A stretch of 64,000 bases of DNA from an uncultured Candidatus Saccharibacteria bacterium (GCA_964589005.1 CAZPQI010000001.1:2144-66143), one strand, 5' to 3'. Counted from the first letter of the stretch, positions 17,231 through 36,834 are shown. Numbers and translations: made by a program. The notes: generated by a model from the letters alone, not told the origin.

Positions 17231-17255
17231 TAATCTTTATTGTAGCATTGCCCCG

Positions 17256-17283
17256 CCAATGTCCAAGGCGTCGCCTTGGGCAC
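17256..17283. repeat. REP-like palindromic element copy R4, 25 bp upstream of RAYT start
   Basis: ccaatgtccaaggcgtcgccttgggcac. Confidence 0.8.
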
Positions 17284-17570: not shown

Positions 17571-17670
<100 letters not shown>

Positions 17671-18116: not shown

Positions 18117-18274
18117 AGCCCGAATAAAACTCGTGTCGTTTTGGGGGAATTTTTGACGCACGGCGCGAAGCGCCGCGTACGGAAACGGGGCATTTTCTTG
18201 GACTTTTTTGTCGTGCAAATGGAGGTTCGATCCGAAGATTTTTCGGAGAGAGGATTTTTTGGAGGGAAGGTCGT
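18117..18274. repeat. IR-L: left copy of a perfect 158-bp inverted repeat flanking serine recombinase 1
   Basis: Exact reverse complement of 19856-20013 (verified base by base at both ends). Confidence 0.9.
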
Positions 18275-18516
18275 GCAAGTTTATATGTGCGCTTGACCCA
18301 CCCACCCGTTCGCGCGCACCAATCCCCACTGTTTTTGAGAGGTATTGTAAAACAGTGGGGATTGCTCCCTCAAAGTGTGTTATATTTCTAGTGCAACCAG
18401 CCGAATTTTTTAAGTCGTGCTCAAAGAGCCGTCTTGGACAGTTCGAATTTATTCGGCTGGTTGCACCAAGGCGGCTTTTTGAGTATTCGCCACATTATCA
18501 ATCTAATTTGTATTAT

Positions 18517-20124: not shown

Positions 20125-20666
20125 AAACATTCATCAAGTTGTTCTCTTGTAAGAATCAGAATGTTGTCTGTCTTAAATGTATTTTTACCGACACTAGCTA
20201 AAAACCCTAAGTAATTTCTCAACTTTACGAAAGCCTTAAGTTTCTCTGAAGTCCATGGAATTAAAATTGCGACTCTACCCAAAGCGGACGCATTAACGAA
20301 CCCACCTAGAATATGTTTCCTGCTAACTTTGTTCTCAATCTCTACGCAGAGAAGACAACGAGCATTTTGATTGAAATGTTTCAAGATTGTAAAAAGATGT
20401 TCGTCAATATCTAAATCGAAGGATTTAAGATTTTCGTTATGCTTTTGAATTAGCTTACGAATGAAATCCTCACTGGTTTCTAATAGATTGCTGTATTCTT
20501 CTATATGTTTATTCTCTGTCGCGAACGGGCCAACTGCAGCATCAACTCTCGGAGAGTAAACACTCGAGTCGCCTCTTATTGAAGTCCACTCAATTTCAAC
20601 ATCTTGGTCTGGATAAATTCCTTGTAACTTTCGCTTTAAAAGTGGCTGGTATTCTTTTGGTGTCAT
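20121..20666 (-). CDS. PD-(D/E)xK-like putative nuclease (hypothetical)
   Basis: 181 aa; candidate D (SPRVDAAVGP) and E-x-K (LCVEIENK) arrangement typical of restriction-endonuclease fold; immediately downstream of the 901-aa helicase gene on same strand. Confidence 0.35.
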   Translation of the reverse strand: MTPKEYQPLLKRKLQGIYPDQDVEIEWTSIRGDSSVYSPRVDAAVGPFATENKHIEEYSNLLETSEDFIRKLIQKHNENLKSFDLDIDEHLFTILKHFNQNARCLLCVEIENKVSRKHILGGFVNASALGRVAILIPWTSEKLKAFVKLRNYLGFLASVGKNTFKTDNILILTREQLDECF

Positions 20667-20731
20667 ATTTGGGTGGTTAAACTATTCTTACTTAAAAATA
20701 TCTTAGAAAAGTGACAAAAGTGACACTGGTA

Positions 20732-23437
20732 TCAAAGATTAAACTTTGATGACAACAGCGCTACGTCCTTTCCATTATTCCTTTTCTCCAAGGAACTTAG
20801 GATCTTTTTTTCTGTCTCTGGCGTCCAGTATATTTTCAACTTTTCTCGTGCTCTTGTTATGGCTGTATAGAAAATATTATGTGAGACCATTTCTTCTATT
20901 TCATCTGTAATAACCACTTTAACCGAGTTGTACTCTAAGCCCTGAGCTTTATGGATGGAAACGGCATAAGCAATTTGGAAAGGAACTACTGCATTTGAGG
21001 AAGAATCGTCATCTTCATCAGTACTCCTAAGCCTGTTAACGATAAAGCGAATAGTTGAGTTTTCATTTTCAAGGTTGTCGACTAGTTCAAAGTCATATCT
21101 TTCTGCTTCCCATTCATTTATTGCTCTATCGAGTTCAACATCAAACTGTATTCCGTCTTCCAGAGTCACTATTTGAACTATCTTACCCTTTAAATTGTTG
21201 TAAATAAGGGGCGCAAATCTATCGGATTCATTAAACAATACGGGGTCATTGACTTTATATGTCTGAACGCCCCATTGTTCGGGAGCACTTTCATTACTAC
21301 CCTGCAAAAATTTGTTTATATTATTTATTCCATAAAGTCCGTCATAATTTAGACATAAAATTATTTCGTCAGCTTCCGAGTGCTCAAAAATTGAATCATT
21401 CAAAGTAAATGAATAATCACTTTTGGTAATGTGTTCTAAAATATCTACATCAATATTTCTAACCTTCGTCCACAAATCGAGCAGCTTTGGGTTTTTACTT
21501 CTATAAGGTTTAGTTAATTCAGATACAGAGGTTACTGGAACAAAATCTCGAACCATGCTGAACCAATTTCCAAAACGAATCGATTCTATCTGGAATACAT
21601 CGCCCACTAAAACTAACAACTTGAAAGAAGCTTTGTTTAGTACCTTAAGCATGTCCGCATTGTTGAGCGTACTACACTCGTCGATAACTAATAAGTCATA
21701 CTTTGTATCTTCATTCCTAACAGATAAAAACCTGGTTACTGTCTTGAAGGTAGAACTCCCAACATTTACCCTTCTCCTAAGATTATCAACGGCAGGATTA
21801 GTGTTGGCTAAATAAAGCTTTTCCCTATCGTGAAAGAAATTAGAAATATGGTTTATTAGTGTTGATTTTCCTGTCCCAGCAGAGCCATATACCAACGCCA
21901 CCTCTGATTTTTCAAACATCTGTTTCAGTTTTACCTTTTTCTCATCACAATCGATTTTGTAGGTAGATGATTGTAACCATGAGTCAAAAGACTTTGAGTA
22001 GTTCTTGATACCTTTTAAGGAAAATCCCTTCAATTTTTCAATGATATGGAGAGTGTCTTGTTCATAGCCTTTTATATAGACATGGTCTTTATAGTCTTCT
22101 ATCTTTCGTTGTCCGTGCTTCCAATATAATTTTGCGTTGTATGACCGCATCAGTTCATCAATGTCATCGAAGTTGGTAATATCTTCCCGTGGTGTATAGA
22201 GATTTCCCTTTATTTCAATGTTATTTCTTACCTGTCTTGCGAATAGCTCGTGCTTTCGATCAGTTGGATCTATACAATCGAACAAATCAGAAAGTCTTGG
22301 GTTGTGACCAATTAAAGAAGTATTAAATGGCATTTCATCAAATGGGATGCATCCATAACTAAGTTTTAGACTTGATAATCTTTCGCACTCCCCATGAAAA
22401 TATTGTCGTTTGAGAATTTTATTATTTAGTCTATAAAGCAGGTATCTGATTACATTATTCCCAGGCGCATTATTTTTTGTCAGTTCACGACTTTTATCTA
22501 ACAGGCTGAGGATATGATCCGTTTGCGCTTTTTGAATTATTGCATCTTTAAAACGCTGATAGTAATCATCAGGGAAGTCGATGACTTCAACTAAGTTCGA
22601 TCCGGTCTTTGTTAAAAGTGACATTAGCTCACGGTATTCCTTCGTTCCAGTGCTTATTTTTATGTGCTTACCAAATATGTCGGCAAAATGATCAAGTTCA
22701 CACGGACGAATTGAGACTTCCCAATTATCAATAATTTGGATTGGCATCTCCTTACCCACAACTTCTATAGAGTCATTACTAACGGCAAGCTTTACAGCAT
22801 AATTGGGAGATATATCTAATTTTGTGAAAGCAATAATTCGATCGAATTTACTTGCATTATCAATCGCCGTTGTAAAAGTCACTTCATAATAAACTTCATG
22901 ATTAACGAAAAATGGTTTTATCTTTTGGATGTAATATCTATCCCTATATGTGCTTCTTATTCTTGATGACTCAGACTGATTAATCTTCTCCGTGATTTTT
23001 TCGTAATACGCTTTTAATGCAGGATCAAGTGTTATGGGAAATTTATCAATGTTCTCCAAAAGATCCATACCATATTTACTTTTCATGAAGGATTTTATTT
23101 TGAGCAAATACTCGTAGTACTTCAGCATCAATCTCTCTGAATTCTCCTCACCGAGAGTATAGTGAGAAGCAGAAATCTGCAGAAGTTTATGAAGTCTACT
23201 CAAAAATTTTAGATCCCCTCTTACCTTGATGAAAGTTTCAGCCTTTTTAATATTTTCGTATGTATTTTCAGTGTCTTTACCGGCGCCGTATATTTTTAAT
23301 GAAATATGTTCAACAAAATTTCTGAGTTGAGATAAGAGGTTCTGCGATAGCAAACCTCTTTCAGAGTCATCAAATTTACTGATGTTCTCACATATAACTT
23401 TATTGGTATTCAAAATGTGATCATCAATCTTTCTCAT
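20732..23437 (-). CDS. large protein: ~480-aa N-terminal domain of unknown function + C-terminal SF1 (RecD/Dda-like, AAA_30 + UvrD_C_2) helicase
   Basis: Walker A VALVYGSAGTGKSTLI, Walker B LLVIDECS, LVGDVFQ, and C-terminal SIHKAQGLEY...FYTAITRAR motifs of SF1B helicases; N-terminal half has no recognisable family. Confidence 0.7.
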   Translation of the reverse strand: MRKIDDHILNTNKVICENISKFDDSERGLLSQNLLSQLRNFVEHISLKIYGAGKDTENTYENIKKAETFIKVRGDLKFLSRLHKLLQISASHYTLGEENSERLMLKYYEYLLKIKSFMKSKYGMDLLENIDKFPITLDPALKAYYEKITEKINQSESSRIRSTYRDRYYIQKIKPFFVNHEVYYEVTFTTAIDNASKFDRIIAFTKLDISPNYAVKLAVSNDSIEVVGKEMPIQIIDNWEVSIRPCELDHFADIFGKHIKISTGTKEYRELMSLLTKTGSNLVEVIDFPDDYYQRFKDAIIQKAQTDHILSLLDKSRELTKNNAPGNNVIRYLLYRLNNKILKRQYFHGECERLSSLKLSYGCIPFDEMPFNTSLIGHNPRLSDLFDCIDPTDRKHELFARQVRNNIEIKGNLYTPREDITNFDDIDELMRSYNAKLYWKHGQRKIEDYKDHVYIKGYEQDTLHIIEKLKGFSLKGIKNYSKSFDSWLQSSTYKIDCDEKKVKLKQMFEKSEVALVYGSAGTGKSTLINHISNFFHDREKLYLANTNPAVDNLRRRVNVGSSTFKTVTRFLSVRNEDTKYDLLVIDECSTLNNADMLKVLNKASFKLLVLVGDVFQIESIRFGNWFSMVRDFVPVTSVSELTKPYRSKNPKLLDLWTKVRNIDVDILEHITKSDYSFTLNDSIFEHSEADEIILCLNYDGLYGINNINKFLQGSNESAPEQWGVQTYKVNDPVLFNESDRFAPLIYNNLKGKIVQIVTLEDGIQFDVELDRAINEWEAERYDFELVDNLENENSTIRFIVNRLRSTDEDDDSSSNAVVPFQIAYAVSIHKAQGLEYNSVKVVITDEIEEMVSHNIFYTAITRAREKLKIYWTPETEKKILSSLEKRNNGKDVALLSSKFNL

Positions 23438-23459
23438 TATATTTACATTTTAGATGCTA

Positions 23460-23765
23460 TCAACCTGCAATCTCCTTAAACCGCTTTAAAGAAACTATAC
23501 TGGATACGTAATTTCTAGCAGAAAACCTATCTTTGGTAACATCATCAATAATAAACGGATCGCTTCCAAACATCGCCCATTTACTTGAAAGGTCTTCGGC
23601 AGCAATTCCTTGCTTTAACATGTCTTCGAAATCTTCATCTACAATTTTCTTACAAGCAGCCACAGCCTCTTCATACGTTGAAAACTCTCCGTGATTAGTC
23701 CTCTCGCTCTCATCCATGTAGTGGAAGTTATCGTCTACCATTACTATGTATCGTTTCTCTGTCAT
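23460..23765 (-). CDS. hypothetical acidic small protein
   Basis: 101 aa ORF co-oriented with neighbours; no motif recognised. Confidence 0.35.
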   Translation of the reverse strand: MTEKRYIVMVDDNFHYMDESERTNHGEFSTYEEAVAACKKIVDEDFEDMLKQGIAAEDLSSKWAMFGSDPFIIDDVTKDRFSARNYVSSIVSLKRFKEIAG

Positions 23766-23803
23766 ACAACCATTATACCACAGAATATGGCTTAAATAAA
23801 GGG

Positions 23804-24886
23804 TTATTTGACCTTGATCTGCTTAACCAGCTTTAATAAGTCTTCTTCTCTCTCATATGCCCTGAATCTTCCTGTGAGTATTCCTGAGCGATATGAGATT
23901 CCATCACTCATAAGTCGCCAGTTTGTACCTTCTAAAGCCTCTCTAGCTATCTTTTGGAGTTCATATGAACTTTCGCGATCTCTACGCTCGGACTTAGTAT
24001 CGTATGTGGTAAAAGGTAAGAATAGGTCTTTACTCATATCTGGAGTACCAAATTGTAGTTTTGTATATCCCTGCTTCTCAAAGACAGGAGCTAGTAATTC
24101 TTCAAGCTCGATAACGGTTAGTTTCTTTATCTTCTCAACTTCGTCATAGACATCTTTATTCTCTTCTCGCTCCTCAACTTCCTTTATTAACTTACCTAGC
24201 TCTTTCATGTTGTTCATCGCTTCAGCATATTTTCTGCCTTCTTCCTCACTACAAAATCGCGCGCGATCCTTTTCATATTCAGGATCGTGTTTCTCCTTTT
24301 TGTTTGCAGTTCTTGGAATCTCACTCACTTCGACGTAATCACAGTCTGGACACGTTGATGTCATTTTAAATACATCATCAGTATCTTCATCTACTTGTTC
24401 AAAAACAGATTGGCACTTTGGACACTTCGGTTTGTTATATTTCCATTCTTCGCCGCTATCATAAAACGAGCGCATTGGAGTGTGCCCAAGTGTGCATTTA
24501 TACATAAAAAGAACTCTGTCGGGTTTATCTAAATTTGTATCTAAATGTTTTGACTCAACGAATACCTCTCTGCTACAGGTAAGACAAGTAATTCCATCAG
24601 GAGCTTCTGCAGTTTCGTAAAAGCGGTCGTGTGCTTCGTCTTCACTCATCCACTTAGAAATAGTTTCTTCTTTTTGTTCATACATACCTCCTTGAACAAA
24701 AAACAAGTGAAGTTCATTGAATGCTTTCGTAAGGTGTTTCTCTTCACTCTTATCTATTTTTTCCTCGTGATGTTTTAGAACCTTGGGGCCATCAATCGCT
24801 CCTTCAGCCCATCGGCAATGTTCAACCGTCATGCGATCATAACGATCAATATACTCTTGTTTTGGTTTTAAATATTTCATTGACAC
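23804..24886 (-). CDS. hypothetical protein with three zinc-ribbon-like Cys pairs and coiled-coil/charged C-terminal half
   Basis: CLTCS...C, CPKCQ, CPDCD motifs; highly charged KE-rich C-terminus. Confidence 0.45.
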   Translation of the reverse strand: MSMKYLKPKQEYIDRYDRMTVEHCRWAEGAIDGPKVLKHHEEKIDKSEEKHLTKAFNELHLFFVQGGMYEQKEETISKWMSEDEAHDRFYETAEAPDGITCLTCSREVFVESKHLDTNLDKPDRVLFMYKCTLGHTPMRSFYDSGEEWKYNKPKCPKCQSVFEQVDEDTDDVFKMTSTCPDCDYVEVSEIPRTANKKEKHDPEYEKDRARFCSEEEGRKYAEAMNNMKELGKLIKEVEEREENKDVYDEVEKIKKLTVIELEELLAPVFEKQGYTKLQFGTPDMSKDLFLPFTTYDTKSERRDRESSYELQKIAREALEGTNWRLMSDGISYRSGILTGRFRAYEREEDLLKLVKQIKVK

Positions 24887-25131
24887 TATTCTGGTTACGT
24901 TTCTTAATAAAGTACAGAGATATCAACACCTTAAATCTTGTCGTCACATAAGCATATGTTATACAATAAGGGAACAATAGAAGATTGGATTTGAAAATGT
25001 ATTAAATTGAGGCGAGAAAGTGCCCCAGACGATGTAACTGAAGTTGTATTGTCTTGGGGCTCTTTCTATTGTCATGGGTCGATATATCCCCCAGGACTGA
25101 TTAGTTACTATCAGTCTAATTAATACAAATC

Positions 25132-26403
25132 ATGACTAAACAAATTAAATGGAACGTCGAGAGACGTAAAGTTAGTGACTTACTCCTTTGGAGTAAGAAC
25201 CCAAGAAGTATTACAGAAGAAGCACTTGAAAAACTAAAGGAACGAATCGTAAAACGAGGTTTTCACGATGTAATAAAAATTGATGTTGATGGAACTATCC
25301 TATCTGGCAACCAGCGTAGGGCGGCACTTATTGATCTCGGCATTGAGGAAGTAACTGTACTGCTTCCAGACCGTAAACTTACCAAAGAAGAAAAAGAGAA
25401 AGTTGCTCTTGAAAGTAACATAAATGATGGAGAATGGAGCTTTGAGGAATTGAAAAACTTTAATCTCGACATGCTTCTTGATATCGGATTCGACAAAGAC
25501 GAACTGTCCGATATTTGGGACGACAAAATCGGAATAACAGAGGATGACTTTGACGAGGAAGAAGAAGTTAAAAAGATTAAGATACCGAAAACAAAACTCG
25601 GTGATCTTATTATTCTTGGAAGCAACAAACTAATCTGTGGTGATTCAAATGATCCAGAAATAGTTAAAAGACTTTTTGGAGAAGATCGTGCATCGATGGT
25701 TATGTCGGATCCTGTATACAACATCAATCTGCCGTACAGGACTGGTCTAGGGGGTACAAAAGATTATGGTGCTGATGTAGAAGACAATAGGACAGAAGAA
25801 GAATATATAGAATTCCTTCGACAGAATATATCAGTTGCCTTACAGGTCGTTAAGCCAGACTGTCATATATTCTATTGGAATACTGAACAGCAGATATGGA
25901 TTCTTCAGACACTCTATCGAGAGCTTGGTATTAGTAACAAGAGAGTATGTCTGTGGGTTAAGAATGGGCAGAATATGACCCCTCAAATTGCGTTCGATAA
26001 GTGTTACGAGCCTTGTATATACGGAACAATCGGTAGCCCTTATCTATCTAAGAAAGAACATGGATTAAATGAAGTGATGAATAAAGGCGTTGGTACGGGA
26101 AATAATCTTATTGACGATGTAAATATCTGGACAGCCAAAAGAATAAGTACGAGTAAATATTCTCATGCCACATCTAAGCCTGTTGGATTGTATGAGAAAT
26201 CAATTAAAAGGTGTACAAAGCCAGGAGATATCATACTCGATACATTTGGTGGCTCAGGTAGCACTCTAATCGCAGGAGAACAATTACAACGAAAGGTGTA
26301 CATGGTCGAATTGGAGCCTGTGTTCTGTGACGTAATAATTAACCGTTATGAAAAAGTAAGTGGTAAAAAAGCGGAGGTAGTTAGTAGCCATGAAGAAAGA
26401 TAA
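25132..26403 (+). CDS. ParB-like nuclease-domain / N6- or N4-DNA methyltransferase fusion (orphan MTase)
   Basis: N-terminal ParB-like domain; MTase motif IV-like SDPVYNINLPY and C-terminal motif I FGGSGST (beta-class order); no cognate restriction gene adjacent. Confidence 0.75.
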   Translation: MTKQIKWNVERRKVSDLLLWSKNPRSITEEALEKLKERIVKRGFHDVIKIDVDGTILSGNQRRAALIDLGIEEVTVLLPDRKLTKEEKEKVALESNINDGEWSFEELKNFNLDMLLDIGFDKDELSDIWDDKIGITEDDFDEEEEVKKIKIPKTKLGDLIILGSNKLICGDSNDPEIVKRLFGEDRASMVMSDPVYNINLPYRTGLGGTKDYGADVEDNRTEEEYIEFLRQNISVALQVVKPDCHIFYWNTEQQIWILQTLYRELGISNKRVCLWVKNGQNMTPQIAFDKCYEPCIYGTIGSPYLSKKEHGLNEVMNKGVGTGNNLIDDVNIWTAKRISTSKYSHATSKPVGLYEKSIKRCTKPGDIILDTFGGSGSTLIAGEQLQRKVYMVELEPVFCDVIINRYEKVSGKKAEVVSSHEER

Positions 26404-26899
26404 AAGAAAAGTCTTTCTGGAAGAGTTGAGCGAAACACCCATAGTGGCAATTGTCTGCAAAAGAGTAGGTTTGTCTAGGCAGACAATTTATAGGTGGTGT
26501 GCGGAAGATAAAGCCTTCAAAGAGAAGTTTGATGGGTGTATTGGTCGTGGGAGAGACAGTATAAATGATTTAGCGGAAAGTAAATTGATATCCCTCATTA
26601 ACGAAGGTAAGTTGGGAGCAATAAAATATTGGTTAGGAAATAACAAACAAAATTATGGTCATCCAAAATCCCCATACTATGACGATGTTATTTCATCTGA
26701 ACTAGATAGGAATAAAGACCTCTTGAGAGAACTTGCCGACAGAGAAGCGCTCAAGGAAAAATCTGGATTAAGCGATTACGACATCGCTAAAATAAGATAC
26801 GATTCTTATTTTGGCGAAAAGGCGAACGTATTGGCAGAAGAGATAAAAGGAAAAATGAAAAAAACAAAGACTGACAACGACAGTACTCCAGAATCCTAA
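26390..26899 (+). CDS. HTH-domain protein (terminase small-subunit-like / resolvase-HTH-like)
   Basis: VAIVCKRVGLSRQTIYRWCAEDKAFK helix-turn-helix; overlaps upstream MTase gene by 14 nt. Confidence 0.45.
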   Translation: MKKDKRKVFLEELSETPIVAIVCKRVGLSRQTIYRWCAEDKAFKEKFDGCIGRGRDSINDLAESKLISLINEGKLGAIKYWLGNNKQNYGHPKSPYYDDVISSELDRNKDLLRELADREALKEKSGLSDYDIAKIRYDSYFGEKANVLAEEIKGKMKKTKTDNDSTPES

Positions 26900-27044
26900 T
26901 TGGAACTTTTGACTATGAACACTATATATTACCTCTCTTCTATCTGAAGAAATCACAGAATCTATTGCTTGCTAAGTAAAGTTGCCAACATGCTGTCTAC
27001 ACAATATCGCTTAGCAAATCTCATGGTTCTGTCATTAATTAAGT

Positions 27045-28373
27045 ATGGAGAACGCGTTAATATCAGTACCAATAAATAACGACATTGAACCTCAAACTAC
27101 AAACATCAAATATTGCTTATACGCCAGAAAATCAACCGAGCAGGATGAGAAACAAGCTCTCTCTATAGAATCTCAAGTGAAAGAGATGTTAGCAATTGCA
27201 GAAAGGGAAAGCCTTGATGTCATAGATATACGAAGAGAATCTCACTCAGCTAAAGACTCAGGGCAACGGCCAGTCTTTAAACAAATTATTGAGGATATTG
27301 AACGGGAGCGATTCAACGCGATCATAACTTGGGCGCCTGATCGTCTAAGCAGGAACGCTGGAGATTTGGGAAGCTTAGTTGATCTTATGGATCAAAAGAA
27401 ACTTCTTACAATTCGCACTTACGGACAAACATTTAGCAACTCTCCAAATGAAAAGTTTTTGTTGATGATTTTATGTAGCCAAGCAAAGTTAGAAAATGAC
27501 AACAAGAGCATAAACGTCAAACGAGGATTACGTGCCAGATGTGAAATGGGGCTGTGGCCAGCTCCTGCTCCTACTGGATACTTAAACGAAAAGAAAACTG
27601 ACAGAAAAGGATATGTGATGATAGACCCTAAGGCAGCTCACATTATTAAACAAATGTTTGAAAAAGTTGCGAATGAAAAATGGAGCGGTAGGAAAATATA
27701 TCATTGGTTAAAGTTTGATCTTAATTTCAAAACCACTACAGGTAATAAGAACCTAACACTCAGTAATGTATTTCTAATTCTAAAAAATACTTTTTACTAC
27801 GGTGAATTTGAGTATCCTAGAGGAGGAGGTGTTTGGTATAAAGGAAAACACGAACCAATTATCACTAAAGAATTATTTGGCCAAGTCCGTCAGGAAATAA
27901 AAACGAATATTGTACGTGTCGAAAGTAAGGAATTTGCTTTCACTAAACTTATGAAATGTGGTCTTTGCGGTTCAGGTATCACAGCCGACGAGAAGTTTAA
28001 AAAATTAAAAAACGGCGGAATCAACAGACATGTCTATTATGGCTGTACGAAAGTGAGAGATAAAAATTGCAAGTGTGGATACATCAACGAAACAGATTTA
28101 ATTAAACAATTTGAAGGACTAATCGATAAGATTGATATAGACAAAACTGGTATCCAGGAGAAGATTAAAGAAGAAGTAACACGATTCAAAAAGTTTCAGC
28201 AATCATTACTTAGCACCAAAGAAAAAATAGTTGTTGCCGATATAGATATACGAAATTACGCAAAGTATGTCCTACAGGAAGGAAAAGACGTCGAGAAACG
28301 AGAATTACTTGGTTGTCTAAAAGGAAAAATTGAATTAAAAAATAAATCAATCATTTTAAATACTAAAGGTTAG
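27045..28373 (+). CDS. large serine recombinase 2
   Basis: YARKSTEQDEKQALSIESQ catalytic motif, recombinase domain, zinc ribbon CGLCGS...C..C; paralog of recombinase 1 (KRGLRA, PAPTGYLN shared). Confidence 0.85.
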   Translation: MENALISVPINNDIEPQTTNIKYCLYARKSTEQDEKQALSIESQVKEMLAIAERESLDVIDIRRESHSAKDSGQRPVFKQIIEDIERERFNAIITWAPDRLSRNAGDLGSLVDLMDQKKLLTIRTYGQTFSNSPNEKFLLMILCSQAKLENDNKSINVKRGLRARCEMGLWPAPAPTGYLNEKKTDRKGYVMIDPKAAHIIKQMFEKVANEKWSGRKIYHWLKFDLNFKTTTGNKNLTLSNVFLILKNTFYYGEFEYPRGGGVWYKGKHEPIITKELFGQVRQEIKTNIVRVESKEFAFTKLMKCGLCGSGITADEKFKKLKNGGINRHVYYGCTKVRDKNCKCGYINETDLIKQFEGLIDKIDIDKTGIQEKIKEEVTRFKKFQQSLLSTKEKIVVADIDIRNYAKYVLQEGKDVEKRELLGCLKGKIELKNKSIILNTKG

Positions 28374-28409
28374 TTTTCATAATCTGTTCTTATTTTTTAC
28401 ATTAACAGT

Positions 28410-31235
28410 TTATTTTAATAACCCACCAATAGTTGATTGTATTGTTATTTTTTCTGTAGGAACAATTATATATCTCCAGGGTTTTACAATTCCAAATTTA
28501 CCAACATTTTCATTTACAACTTTACAATATTCCTCAGCAGTAGTTTTTTTAGCCTGAACGTCTGGTGTGTTTATTTCGTCTCTTGGCTTTACTTCAATCA
28601 TCACTATTTCTTTTTCAAACTCAACCACAAAGTCAGGCTCATATCGATGATGCGACGCTCCGTCAGAATCACGCCAATAGAGTCCTTCAAATTGATTCGG
28701 TGCAGGTCTAAGCCAATCACTCACTGTAGAATCACGATCTAAAAGATAGGCTAGTCTGGCTTCATCAGAGGAGTCAAATTTGTATTGTGCATGGCAAGCA
28801 TTATTAAACCCAGTGTAAGTATGTTCTCGCGAAAAAGTATCAAGTTGAGAATCTAGTGTTACAGGATTTGTTGCAGAAGATATATTATATTGCTCAAGCC
28901 AAGGCTTCGGCTCGGTAACACCTGAATCTAAATATCCTTCTGATTTCAATTCTTTATGAGATACTATTTGTTCATAAATATCATCGGCTATTGACCGAGC
29001 ATTACTTTCAACAATCAATGCTAGATTGTCATCATCAACAGCTTTCTTTTTATAGTGAGTTACAGCCTGTTTTGCTAGTTTCAATAACAAAGGTCTCTGT
29101 GTTTTGTCATCATAGTCGACCAAAGGAAAGTCCAAGAGCGCTGCTATAATTGTGCTCTCTGGCGACTGTTTATTTTTTGCTCCAAAACTTGTTATTTGTG
29201 TGACTTGCGTCATGCGTCTTCCAGGAACATCCTTGCCAAACAAGTCTACATCGCGCTCACCTTGAAGTTGTTCTTCTAAAATTGCTCTCTCATTAGTATA
29301 AGACTGAAGCGCGTTAATACTAGTATCCAAATCAAAATCATGGATTATTAACTCTCCATAATGCGGAGTAAGAATAAGCCTTGGTATTGGTATGTTTCTT
29401 GTCTCTAAATTAGCGCGTACACCTTTCGCAATCTCAGAAAGTTCATCTTGCACATTTGAATTGAACGAACCAAACAACGTATCAGAGCCAAAAGACATAC
29501 CTGTGCTAGATTTTGTTGTTTGACCATGAAATTCTGAGAAAGAGAGATTTTTTGCTGTTTCTTTAGCTGCTACCCCAACCAATTCTTCGGTTTTCATTTC
29601 AAGCATCTTTTCCTTAACGCTGTCTTCCATATTTTCAGTAAGTGGCATTTTTGTAATTGATTCCGTAACTTTCTGTTCAATCTCCTGCATGATCACTTCA
29701 TTCTTTCTAATTTCATTAGCAATATCCTGCAATATAATAGGCTGAATTTCTTTTAAAACCCTGACTTCTTTTACTTCCTTTTCAGATATTTTCTCAACTT
29801 GTCCCTGTATAAGAGTTGAGTCTTTAGCAAGCTCAATCACCCTGGAATATTGTCCGTGTGCAACTATAACGAGTCTATCTACTAGAGGCACACCAGTTCT
29901 CTCACCGTATGGCAATCGTAAGCCACGACCGATTGTTTGTTCAGTTAATATTGCTGCTGCTGAAGCACGTAATGGCGCAATTGTGTATATATTTGTTACA
30001 TCCCACCCTTCTTTAAGCATGTTTACATGTATAACGACCTCCACAATATTTTCGTGATCCTCAAGCGAGATTAATTTTTCAATACTTTCGTCATATTTAC
30101 TTCCGCGGAGTTTTGTATGTATTTCTATTACTTTTCCTTTGAATTCTCCATTTCTAAAATCACCACTATCAATCAAGATCCTTAATTCTCTTGCATGATC
30201 CGTGTCCTTTGCCACCACAAGTAATACGGGTTTTATAACTTGCTTGTTATTTTCAAGTGCATATTCCTTAAGCGCATTTTTTGCGCGTTCATGAAAGAAT
30301 GCTGCCAATTGTAATTTACGCGCATCTGTTTCAATTGATTCGTTATCAAACTGTTTAAAATCTACATCAGCTTCAGTTCCTATCCATGGATCTTTAACAA
30401 GTTTTCCACGAATTGCATCTCCAAGATTGTAAGTATATAAAACATTCTTCATTCTAATTTGCTGAGCATTCTTGCCGCTTCCTTTGGTGCCAAGATATGG
30501 GGTTGCTGTCATTTCTAAACCAAACAACGGATCCATTAAATCAAAAGCTCCAAGTGCGGCATCTGCGTGGTAATGGTGTGCCTCATCAAGCATCACGACT
30601 AAATCATCATGTTCTTTTAGATAATCAAAATATGATTCTCCAGCTGTTTCCCATGCCTTCGTGATACCACGCTCGTTCGTCATATCTTTTTGCGCAAATT
30701 GCTGGATATTAAAAATATTGATTTCAATCTGGTTACCGAAAAGTGACTGCCCGCGTTGTTGAGCATAATTGTCTGTAGTAATAACTTTTGCTGTATTTAT
30801 ATTTATCTCCTGAATGCCTTTAAAAACATACTTTGGATTATTTGCTTTACTAAAATCATCATACAACTTTCTATATATAGTAAGATTTGGCGCCACAATC
30901 AAAAAATGTTGGATATTATAAACAAGATAAAGATACGCCACAAAGGTACCCATAAGCCGTGTTTTGCCGACGCCTGTGGCTAACGCAAAAGTGTAAGCAG
31001 GATATGTGCGTTCAAAATCTTCAAACTTGTCGGCCTCAGGAATGTTTTTAAAATATTTTACTGATTCAGCCAAAATTTCACTTGTGTTTCCGCGATTTCC
31101 TTTTTTCATCCGCGCCAATACTTTTTGTCCTACAGGTGACTCCAAATAATCAGCAAAAAGCTTCAAGCTTTTTGCTTGTGGTATATGCAAACTCATTACG
31201 CCATTTAGATATTTAATCGCTTGCCCTGGTTTCAT
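28410..31235 (-). CDS. res: Type III restriction enzyme Res subunit (SF2 helicase + C-terminal PD-(D/E)xK endonuclease)
   Basis: Walker A TGVGKTRLM, DEAH box VMLDEAHHY, helicase C motifs, C-terminal YEPDFVVE...MIEVKPRDE nuclease motif. Confidence 0.85.
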   Translation of the reverse strand: MKPGQAIKYLNGVMSLHIPQAKSLKLFADYLESPVGQKVLARMKKGNRGNTSEILAESVKYFKNIPEADKFEDFERTYPAYTFALATGVGKTRLMGTFVAYLYLVYNIQHFLIVAPNLTIYRKLYDDFSKANNPKYVFKGIQEININTAKVITTDNYAQQRGQSLFGNQIEINIFNIQQFAQKDMTNERGITKAWETAGESYFDYLKEHDDLVVMLDEAHHYHADAALGAFDLMDPLFGLEMTATPYLGTKGSGKNAQQIRMKNVLYTYNLGDAIRGKLVKDPWIGTEADVDFKQFDNESIETDARKLQLAAFFHERAKNALKEYALENNKQVIKPVLLVVAKDTDHARELRILIDSGDFRNGEFKGKVIEIHTKLRGSKYDESIEKLISLEDHENIVEVVIHVNMLKEGWDVTNIYTIAPLRASAAAILTEQTIGRGLRLPYGERTGVPLVDRLVIVAHGQYSRVIELAKDSTLIQGQVEKISEKEVKEVRVLKEIQPIILQDIANEIRKNEVIMQEIEQKVTESITKMPLTENMEDSVKEKMLEMKTEELVGVAAKETAKNLSFSEFHGQTTKSSTGMSFGSDTLFGSFNSNVQDELSEIAKGVRANLETRNIPIPRLILTPHYGELIIHDFDLDTSINALQSYTNERAILEEQLQGERDVDLFGKDVPGRRMTQVTQITSFGAKNKQSPESTIIAALLDFPLVDYDDKTQRPLLLKLAKQAVTHYKKKAVDDDNLALIVESNARSIADDIYEQIVSHKELKSEGYLDSGVTEPKPWLEQYNISSATNPVTLDSQLDTFSREHTYTGFNNACHAQYKFDSSDEARLAYLLDRDSTVSDWLRPAPNQFEGLYWRDSDGASHHRYEPDFVVEFEKEIVMIEVKPRDEINTPDVQAKKTTAEEYCKVVNENVGKFGIVKPWRYIIVPTEKITIQSTIGGLLK

Positions 31236-31240
31236 AATAT

Positions 31241-32851
31241 TTATTCGTTATTATCATCATCCAAATCAATCTCTTCAAGCGCAGACTTTTTTATTGGAAG
31301 TAGATACTCTTTTTTTCCAAAGTGACACGACTTCAAAACTGACTGCGGAATCTTTTTAATCATAATCCGATCATCTACCTTATCTGCTCCTGGCTCAAAT
31401 TTCTTTGGGCAAATAACAAGTGATTCTCCTTCATCGAGGTGCGCCATGATTTGTTGGACCATACCAGTAGTAAGAAATTGTGTCGTGACATATAGATAGT
31501 TTTTCCCTTGACCTACTCCATGCTTCCAATACTCTGTCTCGCTTGGCTTATAGGTGAAATTCATCAGTTTACACATCGCTTTAATGAGCTTTGTATCATT
31601 ATAAAAGTCATCAATTACTGGATTACCGAATTCGTCATTTACTATGAAACTTGGTGCCAACTCATAAAATTTATATGCGCCGCCGCCTTCCCATTCGAGT
31701 GTTTCAGAAAGTTTTAAACCATCAGTACCACTAATCACTTTATCCAAGCGCGCTTTGCAGTGTGTGTAAGCGTGATCACCCATTTCAATACCAATGTATT
31801 TTCGACCCATTTTATGTGCAACGGCAGCGGCAGTACCTGAACCCAAAAAAGAATCAAGGATTAAATCTCCCTTTTTTGTCGATAATTCAAAAACTCTTTT
31901 AATTAATCTTTCTGGCTTAGGGGTAGTAAACACATCATTAGGATTAATTTTAATAACTTCCTTTTTTGCTTCATCGTTGTGTCCAACTTCACCATGCAAT
32001 AATATAGTAGTAGCTTTTCTACCTTGTTGAACTTCAGACAAGAATTGCTTGAAAGCCGGTATGGACTTACCATTTTTACCAAAAACAACTCTGTTGTCCT
32101 TAATCATTGCCATCATTTTCTTCTCATTAAAAGCCCAATGCTTTCCAAGAGGAGCATCAAATTGATCCCCATGTGGTCCAGTTATAATATAATGACCGTT
32201 TGTACGTTCCTCGTTTGAAATTAAGTCACCAGGTTTCCATGGCCCTCTTGGATCATTGTCTGGGTTTTTATATCGCTTGTTCATTTCTTCAGTCCTCTCA
32301 AGTAAATTAAAATCTAACTTACTCTCATTCCTTGCATATACAAGAATATACTCATGATCTATAGATATTCGTTTAGATTGATTTTTAGGACTATAAACTT
32401 TTTGCCATATTAATGTACATACGTTATTTTTGCGGCCAAAAACTTCATCAGCTAAAACCCTAAGATAAGGCATCTCGTTGTCATCAATTGATATAAAAAT
32501 GACTCCATCTTCATGCTTTAAAAAAGATTTCAGAAGTTCGAGCCTTGGTTTCATCAGGGATAACCAAGTTGAATGTTCAACACTGTCATCATAATGGTCA
32601 AAAGCACTCCTGGTATTGTACGGTGGGTCAATGTAAATACATTTAACTTCCCCTGCATACTCTGGAAGAAGTGCCCTAAGTGCTAAAAGATTATCACCAT
32701 GGATTATCATATTCTCGGTATTTGGATCATTCTTACAATTAGAAAGTTTTGGGTCCTCTTCTAAAATTCGTGGCTCAATATTAGCAATATCGTATTCGGG
32801 ATTGCTCTTTCCTATCCATGTAAGTTCTAGTTTTTGTTTGTTTTTACTCAT
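31241..32851 (-). CDS. mod: Type III restriction-modification Mod subunit (beta-class N6-adenine DNA methyltransferase)
   Basis: Motif IV IYIDPPYNT and C-terminal motif I DSFLGSGTAAAVA; 5-nt gap to res, 4-nt gap to SNF2 gene. Confidence 0.85.
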   Translation of the reverse strand: MSKNKQKLELTWIGKSNPEYDIANIEPRILEEDPKLSNCKNDPNTENMIIHGDNLLALRALLPEYAGEVKCIYIDPPYNTRSAFDHYDDSVEHSTWLSLMKPRLELLKSFLKHEDGVIFISIDDNEMPYLRVLADEVFGRKNNVCTLIWQKVYSPKNQSKRISIDHEYILVYARNESKLDFNLLERTEEMNKRYKNPDNDPRGPWKPGDLISNEERTNGHYIITGPHGDQFDAPLGKHWAFNEKKMMAMIKDNRVVFGKNGKSIPAFKQFLSEVQQGRKATTILLHGEVGHNDEAKKEVIKINPNDVFTTPKPERLIKRVFELSTKKGDLILDSFLGSGTAAAVAHKMGRKYIGIEMGDHAYTHCKARLDKVISGTDGLKLSETLEWEGGGAYKFYELAPSFIVNDEFGNPVIDDFYNDTKLIKAMCKLMNFTYKPSETEYWKHGVGQGKNYLYVTTQFLTTGMVQQIMAHLDEGESLVICPKKFEPGADKVDDRIMIKKIPQSVLKSCHFGKKEYLLPIKKSALEEIDLDDDNNE

Positions 32852-32855
32852 AATC

Positions 32856-35795
32856 TTATATTACCTTAAATCTAATCGTGAATAAGGTCGTAAGAGTCAT
32901 TTTTTGGTTTAGTTGTGCCTCTATTCTGTCTAATAAATCTCCTTTTTTTACATCAACCTCATCTTGCGATTTATAGAGCTTCTGTCTCATTTCGTTTCTT
33001 TTCTTTTCCAAATCCTTTATTTCTCTTTGAATCTTTACTTTCTTTTCCAAATCCAGCACTTTCTTTGCGCTCGTTTTCATCGCCTTGAGATCAATATCCA
33101 TGCGCTTTAAATCTAACTCCAAGCTCTTTTTTAAATCTTCTGCCCAATTATCAAGCTTGTCTACCTCAGCGTCAAAAAATTCACTGTTTCGCTCTGCAAT
33201 CTCTCCAGAAGTTATTTTAATAGTTTGCTTTTCAAACTCATCAATATATTTTTTTTCATCATCACTTAAGTCATTGCAATCACTATACTGCCCAGAAAGT
33301 GAGAAAAGTTTTTTGGCAATTTCTGGTTCTATTTTTTCACCACTTGCATCAATTGCAGATACAACTATATGATCTTCTTTCTCAAATGCTTGAACCGTAT
33401 AATTTGAAACCCTAATTATTCCACTCTTACCTGCTAATGGCTTTAGCACAGAAATGATCGTCTTGTGGTTAATAAAATCAAAAGTAATTTCTTTTACAGG
33501 CAATTCCTTATTTTTTACTTCGGTCAAAATCCTTTGAGCTAATGGGTGGCCAGGGCGATACACATGAGAATCTTCAATATTATTTCCTATTTTATATGGC
33601 CCAGGTGGAATGGTCTCTTCTTTAAATGGATTATTTTTTAATAAAAAAGAATATTCATCTTCCGCAAAATCTGCCTTATCACCTAAATAATATTTTGTCG
33701 TCTCCCATAACCATCTTTCGTATGTATCAAGATACCTCTTACTTTCATCAAGGTTTAGTCGTAATTTTTCATGTACTTCAACATCAAAATTTTCAAGCAA
33801 TTTCTGCTTAGCATCACCCATATTCTCTTGAATGCTCTCATCCATCTCCTGCTGGAGTTTGTCAAATGCATTGTTTATATCTTCCTCGCTACGACACGTT
33901 TGATAAATAGATGATATTCGTTTTTCAAAATCTACACCTGATTCAATGACCCCAAGTATTTCATCACTAGCACCAAATACTCCTTTAAATAATCTGAATT
34001 TCTGGTCGAGTAGCTCAAAGACTCGCTGATCTGCTGCATTCTTTCTATTTATGAAATTGATCACGACAACGTCATATTTTTGACCATAACGATGACAACG
34101 CCCTATTCTCTGCTCAATACGCTGAGGGTTCCAAGGTAGGTCGTAATTTATTACCAAAGAACAAAATTGAAGATTTATACCTTCTGCACCTGCCTCAGTA
34201 GCAATCATTATTTCTGCCTCATCTTTAAAGTAATCAACAATAGCAGCACGCATGTCTGCTGTTTTGAGTCCGGTTATTTTATCTGTGTCTTTATGTTTAT
34301 CTAACCAATCTGTATAAACCTCTTTTGACTTTGGATCATTGTTGGAACCATTAAATAAAACTATCTTCCCTTTATAACCATTGTCAGAAAGCAACTCTAA
34401 TAAATAATCTTGTGTAATTCTAGATTCTGTAAATATTATAGCCTTTTTTTGAGCACCAAATTCCTCAGCTTTTTGGAATCCCTTTTGAAGACCTATTAGT
34501 AAAGCGTCACCCTTTGAATTTTTCCAAATCTTTTTTGCAAGGTCTCTATATTTCTCTAGATCCTTCTTTTCAGCTTCCATTGCCACAATGTCTTTTTGTG
34601 TAAAAACTTTATCGTTATCTTTCTCATCGTCGTTTTCTTCTTCATCGTCAAGCCACTCATCAGATAATTCATCAAACGAATCAAAGTTTTCTTCTATTCC
34701 AGGAATACCTAAATCTGACGAAACTTGTTTGTTCTTTGCTTCCTCAATAAGTTTTTCTAATTTATATGCGAGATTATTTAATGTACTAGCGATAGCAAAA
34801 GTAGAGGATGCTAACAATTTTCTAAGAATAAGTGACATCAAGTGTCTTTGGCTCGCAGGTAACGCATACAACCTCGGTCTCTGAAGATATTCCGTCATTT
34901 CATCATAAAGTTCTATTTCTTCTTCGGAAGGAATATAGTCCTGTGTTAAGGGGATGCGTTTTGTATATTTAATATATTCTAAAACTTGTTTTCTAAGCGT
35001 TCTAATACAAACAGTCTTTAGCCGATTTCTTAAATTGAGAAACATCTCTTGCCTCGGCTCAACTAAGCCTAATTCATTTTCATAAATATCCTGCACTTGA
35101 GAAACTCGGGCGTATTGTGCTTTAAAACTTTTAAGGTCACCAAAAATATGATCGTCAATGATGCTAACGAGTCCGTATAACTCTAGTAGCGAATTTTGAA
35201 GAGGTGTGGCAGTAAGTAAGATTTTTGGAACATTTTCAAGTGATTTTTTTATCTCTTTAGCAATTTTATTCTTGGGCTTATATACATTTCTAAGCCTGTG
35301 AGCTTCGTCTATAATCACAAGATCCCAAGATGTCTGTTTTACATATGGAGATTTATTGCGAGCAAAATGATACGAACAAATAACAATACAATCTTCCTGA
35401 TTAAAGGGGTTGAGATTGCCATCCTTTACGACTTGGTTAAATGATTTCGCCTCTAGAATTGTAGAAGGAAGAAAAAACTTTTCTTGAAGCTCCGTCATCC
35501 ATTGTTTTCGCAAATTTGATGGAACAATAAGAAGTATTGTTCTTTTTCTCTCCGCCCATTTTTGAGAAATGACGAGACCTGCTTCAATTGTTTTTCCTAA
35601 ACCAACCTCATCAGCCAGAATTGCGCCCTTTGAGAGTGGTGAACGAAAAGCAAACAGAGCAGCTTCAATCTGATGTGGGTTTAAATCAATTTGTGCATTA
35701 GATAATGTTGACGTAAGCTTGTTCAAACTGTCCGAAGAACTTCGCTTGGTTAGCTCGTAAGCATAATATTTTGCATGATAATCAGTGATTTTCAT
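32856..35795 (-). CDS. SNF2-family helicase with ~350-aa C-terminal domain of unknown function
   Basis: GLGKT Walker A, DEAH box VIIDEAHRLRN, helicase C (QRIGRCHRYGQ); C-terminal 620-979 region (coiled-coil rich) unrecognised. Confidence 0.8.
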   Translation of the reverse strand: MKITDYHAKYYAYELTKRSSSDSLNKLTSTLSNAQIDLNPHQIEAALFAFRSPLSKGAILADEVGLGKTIEAGLVISQKWAERKRTILLIVPSNLRKQWMTELQEKFFLPSTILEAKSFNQVVKDGNLNPFNQEDCIVICSYHFARNKSPYVKQTSWDLVIIDEAHRLRNVYKPKNKIAKEIKKSLENVPKILLTATPLQNSLLELYGLVSIIDDHIFGDLKSFKAQYARVSQVQDIYENELGLVEPRQEMFLNLRNRLKTVCIRTLRKQVLEYIKYTKRIPLTQDYIPSEEEIELYDEMTEYLQRPRLYALPASQRHLMSLILRKLLASSTFAIASTLNNLAYKLEKLIEEAKNKQVSSDLGIPGIEENFDSFDELSDEWLDDEEENDDEKDNDKVFTQKDIVAMEAEKKDLEKYRDLAKKIWKNSKGDALLIGLQKGFQKAEEFGAQKKAIIFTESRITQDYLLELLSDNGYKGKIVLFNGSNNDPKSKEVYTDWLDKHKDTDKITGLKTADMRAAIVDYFKDEAEIMIATEAGAEGINLQFCSLVINYDLPWNPQRIEQRIGRCHRYGQKYDVVVINFINRKNAADQRVFELLDQKFRLFKGVFGASDEILGVIESGVDFEKRISSIYQTCRSEEDINNAFDKLQQEMDESIQENMGDAKQKLLENFDVEVHEKLRLNLDESKRYLDTYERWLWETTKYYLGDKADFAEDEYSFLLKNNPFKEETIPPGPYKIGNNIEDSHVYRPGHPLAQRILTEVKNKELPVKEITFDFINHKTIISVLKPLAGKSGIIRVSNYTVQAFEKEDHIVVSAIDASGEKIEPEIAKKLFSLSGQYSDCNDLSDDEKKYIDEFEKQTIKITSGEIAERNSEFFDAEVDKLDNWAEDLKKSLELDLKRMDIDLKAMKTSAKKVLDLEKKVKIQREIKDLEKKRNEMRQKLYKSQDEVDVKKGDLLDRIEAQLNQKMTLTTLFTIRFKVI

Positions 35796-35801
35796 TTTTA
35801 A

Positions 35802-36008
35802 TTATTTTAAAAGCTCATCGGATGATACTCCGACTGCATTAGCTAATCTTGCTATTGTTGCAAGTGTTGGATTTGTCTTTCCACTTTCAATATTACTAAC
35901 AAATCCACGACTAACCCCAAGTGATCGAGCCACATCGACTTGCGATATATCTTTTTCTGTTCTAATACGCTTTAGGTTCTTCCCAAGCTTTTCTGCCTCT
36001 TCTTTCAT
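35802..36008 (-). CDS. XRE-family HTH transcriptional regulator
   Basis: 68 aa; SQVDVARSLGVSRGFVSNIESGKTNPTLATIARLANAVGVS is the canonical XRE HTH. Confidence 0.75.
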   Translation of the reverse strand: MKEEAEKLGKNLKRIRTEKDISQVDVARSLGVSRGFVSNIESGKTNPTLATIARLANAVGVSSDELLK

Positions 36009-36065
36009 AATGACCCGTAGTGTACCACAATGTTATATTAAAACATAACATCTCAAAAGCCACCC

Positions 36066-36094
36066 AATCGGGTGGCTTTTGAGTCTAATTACTG
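36066..36094 (-). terminator. hairpin terminator downstream of ssb (aaagccaccc..gggtggcttt + T-run)
   Basis: 10-bp perfect stem seen directly. Confidence 0.45.
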
Positions 36095-36110: not shown

Positions 36111-36635
36111 CTAATCTGGATATGCCCATCCTGTAGCTTCATCATCACTATGTAAGTCACGTAGTTCTTGAGCCCACTCCAAATCATATTCCGGATACAA
36201 ATAAGGTTTAGGTACAAATTCTTCCTCATCGTCAAATGATTCCTCCGGGTACTCTTGATGATATTCGGTTTCGTTTTCCGAGGATTCTTCTCTTCTCGCT
36301 TGTTTAGGTAAATGTAGCTTAAATCGCTCTAAGACTATGAATGTCTTAGAGAATTCTACCCCATGTTGTCCATGTCGTGTCCACTTCACGGTCTTAAGTC
36401 TCCCGTGGATAAATATTCTCTGAGACTTAGAGCTTTCCCTTTTAATAATTCTGGCATAGTTACCATACGCAACAACGTGATGCAACACTGTATTCGATCC
36501 AATTGTCTCATTTCCTTTAAAATAAGCTACATCGGTAGAAACAGTAAACCAACAACACTGCTGACCATTCTTTAATGTTTGAATGTCTGACAGTGTTTTT
36601 ATTGTCCCAAGTAAAGAAACCTCGTTAATATCCAT
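36111..36635 (-). CDS. ssb: single-stranded DNA-binding protein
   Basis: OB-fold pattern VSLLGTI...TVLHHVVAYGNYA...IFIHGRL and acidic C-terminal tail. Confidence 0.75.
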   Translation of the reverse strand: MDINEVSLLGTIKTLSDIQTLKNGQQCCWFTVSTDVAYFKGNETIGSNTVLHHVVAYGNYARIIKRESSKSQRIFIHGRLKTVKWTRHGQHGVEFSKTFIVLERFKLHLPKQARREESSENETEYHQEYPEESFDDEEEFVPKPYLYPEYDLEWAQELRDLHSDDEATGWAYPD

Positions 36636-36760: not shown

Positions 36761-36834
36761 TGGCTGTCGGACTAGGACTCGAACCTAGATAGGCGGCACC
36801 AAAAGCCGCAGTCCTACCATTAGACGATCCGACA
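36761..36834 (-). tRNA. tRNA-Gln (anticodon UUG), CCA encoded
   Basis: Manual fold: acceptor TGTCGGA/TCCGACA, D-stem, anticodon stem GCGGC/GCCGC with loop TTTTGGT, T-arm CTAGG-TTCGAGT-CCTAG, discriminator G, CCA. Confidence 0.8.

Follow-up and report, generated by a model that had tools for sequence, protein, structure and literature searches.

The 64,000-nucleotide stretch of DNA analysed here (the window) is from an uncultured Candidatus Saccharibacteria bacterium (GCA_964589005.1, CAZPQI010000001.1:2144-66143), and carries on its minus strand four co-oriented genes, coding for a small XRE-family helix-turn-helix (HTH) protein, an SNF2-family ATPase, and the Mod and Res subunits of a Type III restriction-modification (R-M) system. 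In related loci the SNF2-Mod-Res synteny is near-obligate, across phyla and across mobile elements. The locus is probably a horizontally mobile anti-phage or anti-plasmid R-M module, in which a Type III Mod-Res pair is joined by a dedicated DrmD-like SNF2 ATPase serving restriction and, in this copy, by an XRE-type controller. The conserved synteny, together with the analogy to DISARM class 1 and ARMADA, suggests that the SNF2 protein acts as a functional third component. A first-pass annotation of this DNA had proposed a three-component variant of Type III, and the synteny supports that proposal, with the role of the SNF2 protein drawn by analogy.

Linkage was assessed in a sample of 93 loci seeded from the SNF2 gene, of which 8 are in reference genomes, 80 are metagenome loci from an alignment-derived scan, and the others come from look-ups. 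The single-protein scan of reference genomes used patterns that were too specific and gave the 8 loci only; the alignment-based metagenome scan provides the larger sample, with short contigs. Among the loci with at least 6 kb downstream of SNF2 (n=51), a co-directional Mod is present in 49 (96%) and Res in 44 (86%). The corresponding counts are 65 Mod and 52 Res for the 70 loci with at least 3 kb downstream, and 32 and 28 for the 33 with at least 9 kb. All of these figures are biased downward, because partners were detected by tblastn with the window's own Mod and Res and very divergent ones may be missed. Linkage of the SNF2 clade to mod and res in other genomes had been singled out beforehand as a key test of the proposal, and it is present. 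All eight reference-genome loci have SNF2 followed by Mod, and Res as well where the contig is long enough, with the exception of L008, in which a Res homologue is missing after Mod.

The pairing recurs on IncFIB, MOBH, MOBF and MOBP plasmids, on serine-recombinase islands, and at the yicC-dinD site of Escherichia coli. The SNF2-Mod-Res order is annotated on a Deltaproteobacteria contig, on an Omnitrophota contig, and on plasmids of Ketogulonicigenium and Sphingopyxis. Versions with additional genes are found on Salmonella IncFIB plasmids (HTH-SNF2-IS256-Abi-hypothetical-Mod-Res), on a conjugative plasmid of Rhizobium (HTH-SNF2-Mod-DUF262-Res), and, flanked by yicC and dinD, on the chromosome of E. 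coli STEC309 (NZ_CP041435.1, 67251-77404; HTH-SNF2-GmrSD-Mod-Res). The E. coli copy and that of Salmonella plasmid pR18.1595_113k are tractable examples. In the reciprocal test, a tblastn search of plasmids with Res recovered records that also hold the SNF2 gene. A more distant Res on a Gordonia plasmid belongs to an ordinary two-gene Mod-Res, and the SNF2 association therefore marks one clade of Type III-like systems, not all of them. Within the SNF2 family there are at least two lineages of partner Res, one with a TnsA-like nuclease, as in the window, and one of ~1000 amino acids (aa) with RE_endonuc (PF19778) that follows a larger Mod; the C-terminal module of the SNF2 protein is kept with both. 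The linkage is invisible in routine annotation because the labels assigned by PGAP are generic ('SNF2-related protein', 'site-specific DNA-methyltransferase', 'DEAD/DEAH box helicase family protein').

One apparent gene fusion was considered and rejected. A 1233-aa 'SNF2-related protein' on Thioclava sp. plasmid p5 (NZ_CP149930.1; locus L096, 4391-8092) joins SNF2 residues 1-825 to Res residues 531-945, and could be taken for a Rosetta-stone fusion. Its two parts share 98.7% and 93% identity, respectively, with the unfused SNF2 and Res of a Ketogulonicigenium-type locus, and because of this near-identity the protein is read as a recent in-frame deletion and not an evolved fusion. With the deletion, the coiled coil of SNF2, the whole of Mod and the helicase of Res are lost. 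Separately, a conserved 156-aa open reading frame (ORF) with no Pfam match lies between SNF2 and Mod in two Patescibacteria-type loci (L006, 12956-13426; L008, 12952-13422).

In the window the four genes form a tight array in the order XRE-SNF2-Mod-Res (Table 1), and the 4-6-nt gaps described initially are confirmed as 6, 4 and 5 nt. The interval first annotated, 32856-36008, covers only the XRE and SNF2 genes; the operon itself extends down to 28410. Its G+C content is 36%, compared with ~41-42% in the flanks (0.42 past 36.1 kb), and it occupies the right-hand end of a low-GC defence island of ~18 kb (window ~18200-36050). The strong terminator-like hairpin listed in Table 1 marks the boundary of the low-GC island and the start of an independent transcription unit. 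A scan for sigma-70 promoters was uninformative, with 24 sites against 30 expected.

Table 1. Features of the SNF2-associated Type III operon and its upstream edge (window coordinates).
Feature	Position	Strand	Size or extent	Basis
XRE-family HTH gene	35802-36008	-	68 aa	ORF listing
DrmD-like SNF2 (Swi2/Snf2) ATPase gene	32856-35795	-	979 aa	ORF listing
SNF2 ATPase core	33702-35711	-	aa 29-698	extent of DrmD profile match
Family-specific SNF2 C-terminal module	32859-33785	-	aa 671-979	AlphaFold2 model, pLDDT 88.2
Type III Mod gene (predicted)	31241-32851	-	536 aa	ORF listing
Type III Res gene (predicted)	28410-31235	-	941 aa	ORF listing
Terminator-like hairpin, between upstream SSB gene and operon	36052-36083	-	14-bp stem, 8 G-C pairs	terminator scan
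Inverted repeat ATGTTAT-N8-ATAACAT	36030-36051	unspecified	7-bp arms; 22-43 nt upstream of XRE start codon	read from sequence

The assignment of Mod and Res to Type III, made at first sight of the sequence, is borne out by Pfam, PADLOC and motifs. Mod matches Pfam N6_N4_Mtase (PF01555; 1.9e-45) and PADLOC MTase_III (3.7e-159), and among solved structures a Type III Mod (6k0w, 1.6e-51) and the EcoP15I Mod (8.4e-38). Its DPPY motif (75-78) is N-terminal to FLGSGT (335-340), which is the beta-class order, and by domain content it is a Type III beta-class N6-adenine DNA methyltransferase. Res has an N-terminal superfamily 2 (SF2) ATPase (Pfam ResIII, 1.5e-19; TGVGKT 87-92, DEAHH 217-221) and a C-terminal PD-(D/E)xK nuclease (Pfam Tn7_TnsA-like_N, 1.5e-06 at 848-905; PDF 867-869 and IEVK 880-883). 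It also matches PADLOC REase_III (1e-126) and, below the cut-off, the NCBIfam BPTD_3080-family restriction endonuclease (1e-30); the match to EcoP15I Res is weak (1.4e-4). By domain content Res is thus a helicase-nuclease of the Type III kind. The type of Mod, the type of Res, and the placement of mod directly upstream of res on the same strand are, at the level of sequence, those of a Type III R-M locus.

The SNF2 protein matches Pfam SNF2-rel_dom (8e-36) and Helicase_C (5e-21), and contains GLGKT at 65-69 together with the two motifs originally noted in it, DEAH (163-166) and HRYGQ (within QRIGRCHRYGQ, 562-572). A 49-sequence alignment reaching down to 39% identity shows no variation at K68, D163-H166, R563, R566 and Q572, and by its motifs the ATPase is intact. 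Its best family matches are DrmD models: the match to PADLOC PDLC02619 is at 2.2e-210, and NCBIfam NF038318 (DISARM_DrmD_b) scores 703 bits, below the curated cut-off of 950. The PADLOC and NCBIfam DrmD alignments end near residue 698, at about profile position 659 of ~870 (positions 21-658 of 868 are aligned), leaving the last ~210 profile positions unaligned. An alignment to NCBIfam NF038317 (DrmD) that runs out to residue 957 was not counted as homology, as it is lost when the C-terminal region is scanned alone. The second-best PADLOC family is BrxHI/HII (1.8e-65), and the nearest solved structure is RapA, both by sequence (7e-39) and by fold (5e-26); the NCBIfam RapA score is 186.6 bits against a cut-off of 576, with the alignment beginning at about RapA position 132. 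The full-length AlphaFold2 model, built from a diverse alignment, has a pLDDT of 82.3 and a pTM of 0.70. No nuclease or other effector domain was found in the protein by Pfam, in the AlphaFold model, or with Foldseek.

Homologues of the SNF2 protein number more than 8000, and the best 120 are 71-83% identical along the full length, coming from Peregrinibacteria, Parcubacteria, other Patescibacteria, Omnitrophota, Syntrophales and Deltaproteobacteria. Identity this high across phyla points to horizontal spread.

The C-terminal part of the SNF2 protein is a module specific to the family. AlphaFold2 predicts with confidence that it begins with a long helix (671-707) and continues as an alpha/beta domain (708-838) and then as an antiparallel coiled-coil hairpin of ~115 residues (845-962), after which the last strand (965-978) rejoins the beta-sheet of the alpha/beta domain. 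This agrees with the early description of the C-terminal region as coiled-coil-rich and uncharacterised, and no match of known function emerged; one to an unrelated function would, by the initial criteria, have told against the proposal. Residues 621-979 have no Pfam match, and in NCBIfam and PADLOC only the first ~78 of them match, as the tail of the DrmD helicase profile; a PDB sequence search with the C-terminal region returned nothing, and Foldseek with the module model, run against PDB only, gave no match at E<=1e-3. The conserved patches are YRxxHPLA (746-753), GKSG (789-792), KLDxWAxD (880-887) and the terminal LFTIRW strand, and no invariant acidic, histidine or lysine constellation is seen in the 49-sequence alignment. 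With no invariant residues of a catalytic type, the module resembles a binding or structural element more than an enzyme.

When 1.84 billion 50%-identity cluster representatives were searched exhaustively with HMMER, the module was found in 1863 proteins, 999 of them at 1e-10. Nearly all full-length carriers are 940-1000 aa long and have the module C-terminally. Long N-terminal extensions occur in a few members of the SNF2 family (P0195, 1493 aa; P0202, 1349 aa; P0262, 1986 aa); judged by eye from the sequence, that of P0262 is UvrD/AddA-like helicase-nuclease and that of P0202 has a possible PD-(D/E)xK region.

Among known systems, the locus resembles canonical Type III enzymes (EcoP15I, EcoP1I; Mod2Res1-2), in which Mod and Res suffice and ATP-dependent cleavage requires two inversely oriented unmethylated sites. 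It shares with these the mod-res order, the PF01555 beta-class Mod, and a Res composed of an SF2 ResIII ATPase and a C-terminal PD-(D/E)xK nuclease. It differs from them in that a third conserved gene, coding for the SNF2 ATPase, precedes mod in almost all relatives, that Res is remote from EcoP15I Res and has, in this copy, a TnsA-like nuclease rather than RE_endonuc, and that the unit frequently has defence cargo within it.

Class 1 DISARM, reportedly described by Ofir and colleagues in 2018 (see also PMC11232893), combines the DrmD SNF2 helicase and the DrmMI adenine methylase with DrmA, DrmB and DrmC. The SNF2 core here is closest to DrmD models, and in both methylation-based defence loci an adenine methyltransferase gene directly follows the SNF2 gene. 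The differences are that the methyltransferase and nuclease here are Type III Mod and Type III Res, that the NCBIfam DrmD match is below its cut-off, and that the C-terminal ~280 residues of the SNF2 protein are unaligned to both DrmD profiles. The early comparison with DISARM, which had recorded drmABC as absent, holds on both counts: Pfam and PADLOC scans and annotations revealed no gene of the drmA, drmB (DUF1998) or drmC (PLD) type in the operon, its island neighbours, or the annotated related loci. DrmA is not among the 12 PADLOC matches of Res. The DrmMI model is not among the best 25 of the 67 PADLOC matches of Mod, all 25 being Type III, Type II or orphan methyltransferases, with MTase_III first.

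ARMADA consists of ArmA (SNF2/BrxHII-like), ArmB (a PglX-like methyltransferase) and ArmC (a YprA helicase-nuclease), and deletion of the SNF2 gene armA abolished the defence provided by ARMADA II (bioRxiv 10.1101/2025.09.22.677730; 10.1101/2025.09.15.676423). Both ARMADA and those BREX systems that include BrxHII share with the present locus an SNF2 ATPase paired with a methyltransferase, plus a separate helicase-nuclease effector. The families differ, in that the PglX/YeeA-type methyltransferase and YprA/DUF1998 effector of ARMADA are not present here. In Pfam and PADLOC the four operon proteins matched only HTH, SNF2, Type III Mod and Type III Res, with no PglX-type methyltransferase, YprA/DUF1998 or PglZ/BrxC. 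As for RapA, an RNA polymerase recycling factor, it is the closest solved structure to the SNF2 ATPase core; the protein here differs in its C-terminal module and genomic context, and lacks the RNA polymerase-binding N-terminal domain of RapA, since its ATPase begins at about residue 30. Judged by their sequence hallmarks, the locus would thus be assigned to none of DISARM, RapA, ARMADA and BREX. The copy in the window is an ordinary representative of a large family, one that is apparently uncharacterised and unnamed in the open-access literature. No description of an SNF2-associated Type III system was found there; REBASE and subscription journals were outside the search, and a prior description is possible.

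We propose that, as in EcoP15I, Mod2-Res complexes would label self DNA and detect sites that lack methylation, and that the SNF2 protein, as a double-stranded DNA translocase or remodeller, would be required by the restriction arm and not by methylation. Its part may be to power or rectify communication over long distances on invading DNA, or else to clear away bound proteins that stand in the way of Res, with the C-terminal alpha/beta and coiled-coil module as a putative element for docking or dimerisation. The XRE protein would probably act as C-proteins do, delaying or limiting expression upon entry into a new host. In relatives, the SNF2-Mod interval also serves as an insertion site for other defence genes, such that the unit doubles as a mini defence island scaffold.

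Several considerations weigh against a joint function of this kind. Canonical Type III enzymes require no third protein, and a few loci (L071, L008) are without Mod or Res within 10 kb. Single-protein SNF2 defences exist, e.g. HmaA (PMC11232893), and the SNF2 protein could act alone. Mod lies within 250 nt of SNF2 in 28 of 76 loci, and the other 48 have 0.5-8 kb of almost always co-directional genes between the two. The early suggestion that SNF2 is translationally coupled in front of mod is in keeping with the 4-nt gap in the window; with cargo splitting the two genes in so many loci, coupling is dispensable, a trait of this copy and not of the family. Among SNF2 proteins sharing at least 70% identity with that of the window, the identity of the partner Res to the window's Res is 81%, 60% or only 36-38%, and Mod ranges from 37 to 69%. 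SNF2 is therefore the best conserved of the three genes and is exchanged freely among divergent Mod-Res modules. Such recombination weakens the case for a finely co-evolved SNF2-Mod/Res interface, and accords with contact via DNA or via a surface that is conserved.

The genes found between SNF2 and Mod are recurrent, and include AIPR, OLD-family nucleases, SIR2 with HerA, DUF2130, SMC-like ATPases, YhcG/DUF1016, GmrSD, Fic, RhuM, Schlafen/AlbA_2, an HmaA-like SNF2-NOV_C protein, and an IrrE-HTH gene with a small partner that was read by eye, with no domain scan, as HigB-like. The loci in which the interval was compared are from the set L009, L012 and L015-L093, together with the E. coli locus L099 (11858-13963). 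Even with 0.5-8 kb of cargo in between, SNF2 remains in one co-directional unit with Mod-Res, which counts in favour of a joint function. The SNF2...Mod-Res frame behaves as a scaffold that embeds other defence genes, and the SNF2-Mod interval looks like an integration hot spot inside the operon; the embedding of defence genes is also familiar from Type I hsd loci. In one locus (L021) the HmaA-like SNF2 and NOV_C protein (16427-19858; 1143 aa) lies downstream of the DrmD-like SNF2 and beside Fic and Schlafen/AlbA_2, so that two distinct SNF2 defence proteins stand within one co-directional array.

More tentatively, HTH/SNF2...Mod-Res loci may constitute a distinct, very widespread and undescribed three-component class of Type III-like systems, in which a DrmD-like translocase with a new C-terminal fold is obligatory for restriction and the SNF2-Mod interval is a dedicated integration hot spot. 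The breadth suggested for this class follows from the more than 8000 SNF2 homologues and the 1863 clusters with the C-terminal module.

The main rival to a restriction-serving SNF2 ATPase keeps the functional link and reverses its sign. The SNF2 protein would protect or regulate the host, either by RapA-like stripping of sliding or stalled Mod-Res from the chromosome or by a bias towards methylation, and would thereby limit autoimmunity arising from hemimethylated sites. The synteny fits this explanation equally well, the solved structure nearest in sequence and in fold is that of RapA, and the C-terminal module, with no invariant residues of a catalytic type, looks like a binding module. We nonetheless consider it unlikely. 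The RapA model gives 187 bits, where the cut-off is 576, and the N-terminal domain of RapA is absent; in ARMADA II, the one analogue that has been tested, losing the SNF2 gene led to loss of defence and not to toxicity; and canonical Type III enzymes, as is general knowledge for EcoP15I, tolerate hemimethylation with no helper.

The explanations that deny a joint function fit the synteny poorly. In the first of them SNF2 is a single-gene defence or anti-defence in its own right, which neighbours Type III genes only as shared defence-island cargo, with no joint mechanism. The free insertion of other defence genes between SNF2 and Mod would be expected from this, as would the partly incongruent identities of SNF2 and Res; stand-alone SNF2 defence proteins such as HmaA provide a precedent (PMC11232893), and an unrelated candidate defence gene (PDC-S53) is present in the same island of the window. 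Yet linkage of 96% for Mod and 86% for Res, in fixed order and orientation, in many phyla and on at least four kinds of mobile element, is far above that of a defence-island neighbourhood. The cargo varies whereas the SNF2...Mod-Res frame is constant, and the SNF2 protein has no nuclease or effector domain of its own, making independence of the SNF2 gene distinctly improbable.

It is very unlikely that HTH-SNF2 belongs to a mobile-element backbone concerned with replication, transfer or establishment, and not to R-M. SNF2 genes are common on conjugative elements (PMC5704250), and serine recombinases are nearby in some loci; however, recombinases are present in only 12 of 93 loci and the HTH gene in ~14 of 91, and the Mod-Res pairing persists on all of the plasmid types, islands and the chromosomal site listed above. 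Hardly credible is a reading as class 1 DISARM, degenerate or minimal through loss of drmA, drmB and drmC: the DrmD models are the best SNF2 family matches and SNF2 precedes an adenine methyltransferase as drmD precedes drmMI, but the DrmD_b score is below cut-off with the end of the profile unaligned, the methyltransferase and Res are of the Type III kind, no DUF1998 or PLD gene is found in the island or in annotated relatives, and the architecture is intact and conserved in dozens of loci and is therefore not a decay product.

The XRE gene, named first in the initial description of the operon, is not upheld as a component for the family. A small HTH gene abuts SNF2 upstream in only ~14 of 91 related loci and belongs to two HTH families, XRE-type or HTH_17/MerR-type, and the XRE gene is an optional, not a conserved, component. 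Consequently the HTH gene, like the serine recombinase (see above), was rejected as a constant part of the unit. In the window the 68-aa protein matches Pfam HTH_3 (4.4e-17) and the PADLOC models Control_protein (3.5e-12) and HTH_VI (1.8e-14), and is probably a C-protein-like transcriptional controller of the operon. As in C-protein-controlled R-M systems, a small XRE HTH gene with a Control_protein match heads the operon and an inverted repeat is positioned just upstream (Table 1); we infer that this repeat is a candidate operator resembling a C-box. C-proteins classically accompany Type II systems, and the HTH gene here differs from theirs in being missing from most relatives or swapped for an HTH_17-type gene.

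The remainder of the low-GC region contains two large serine recombinases (18508-20124 and 27045-28373, both +) and an orphan N6/N4 methyltransferase (25132-26403, +; PADLOC MTase_II, 8e-56). It also contains a 901-aa superfamily 1 helicase (20732-23437, -; AAA_30/UvrD_C_2), in which an N-terminal region of ~500 aa has no assignment, and which is a full-length match to the PADLOC candidate single-gene defence system PDC-S53 (E=0, 1352 bits). Directly downstream of this helicase is a 181-aa ORF with no family match (20121-20666, -), and further ORFs with no family match include 23460-23765 and 23804-24886. One or two integrated mobile defence islands probably make up the region as a whole (window ~18200-36050). 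Next to the island edge is an SSB gene (36111-36635, -) that has a long acidic extension at its C-terminus, and a tRNA-Gln(ttg) gene (36761-36834, -), ~700 nt past the edge, could be an integration target.

To our knowledge, Type III R-M has been regarded for decades as a closed two-subunit system. A large clade that is almost always accompanied by a third ATP-driven motor implies either another mode of long-range DNA communication or a new layer of control. The system is experimentally tractable, and relevant to plasmid and phage-therapy barriers, because it occurs on conjugative plasmids of Salmonella and Klebsiella and on E. coli chromosomes, and the cargo embedded within it offers a new 'guilt by embedding' anchor for the discovery of defence genes. 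We know of no defined molecular role for the SNF2 lineage (DrmD, ArmA, BrxHII) found in DISARM, ARMADA and BREX, and a three-gene version on the well-understood Type III chassis would be the simplest setting in which to learn it. If the SNF2 protein is obligatory for restriction, this family would provide the first tractable handle on DrmD-type SNF2 function in methylation-based immunity, including DISARM, ARMADA and BREX with BrxHII.

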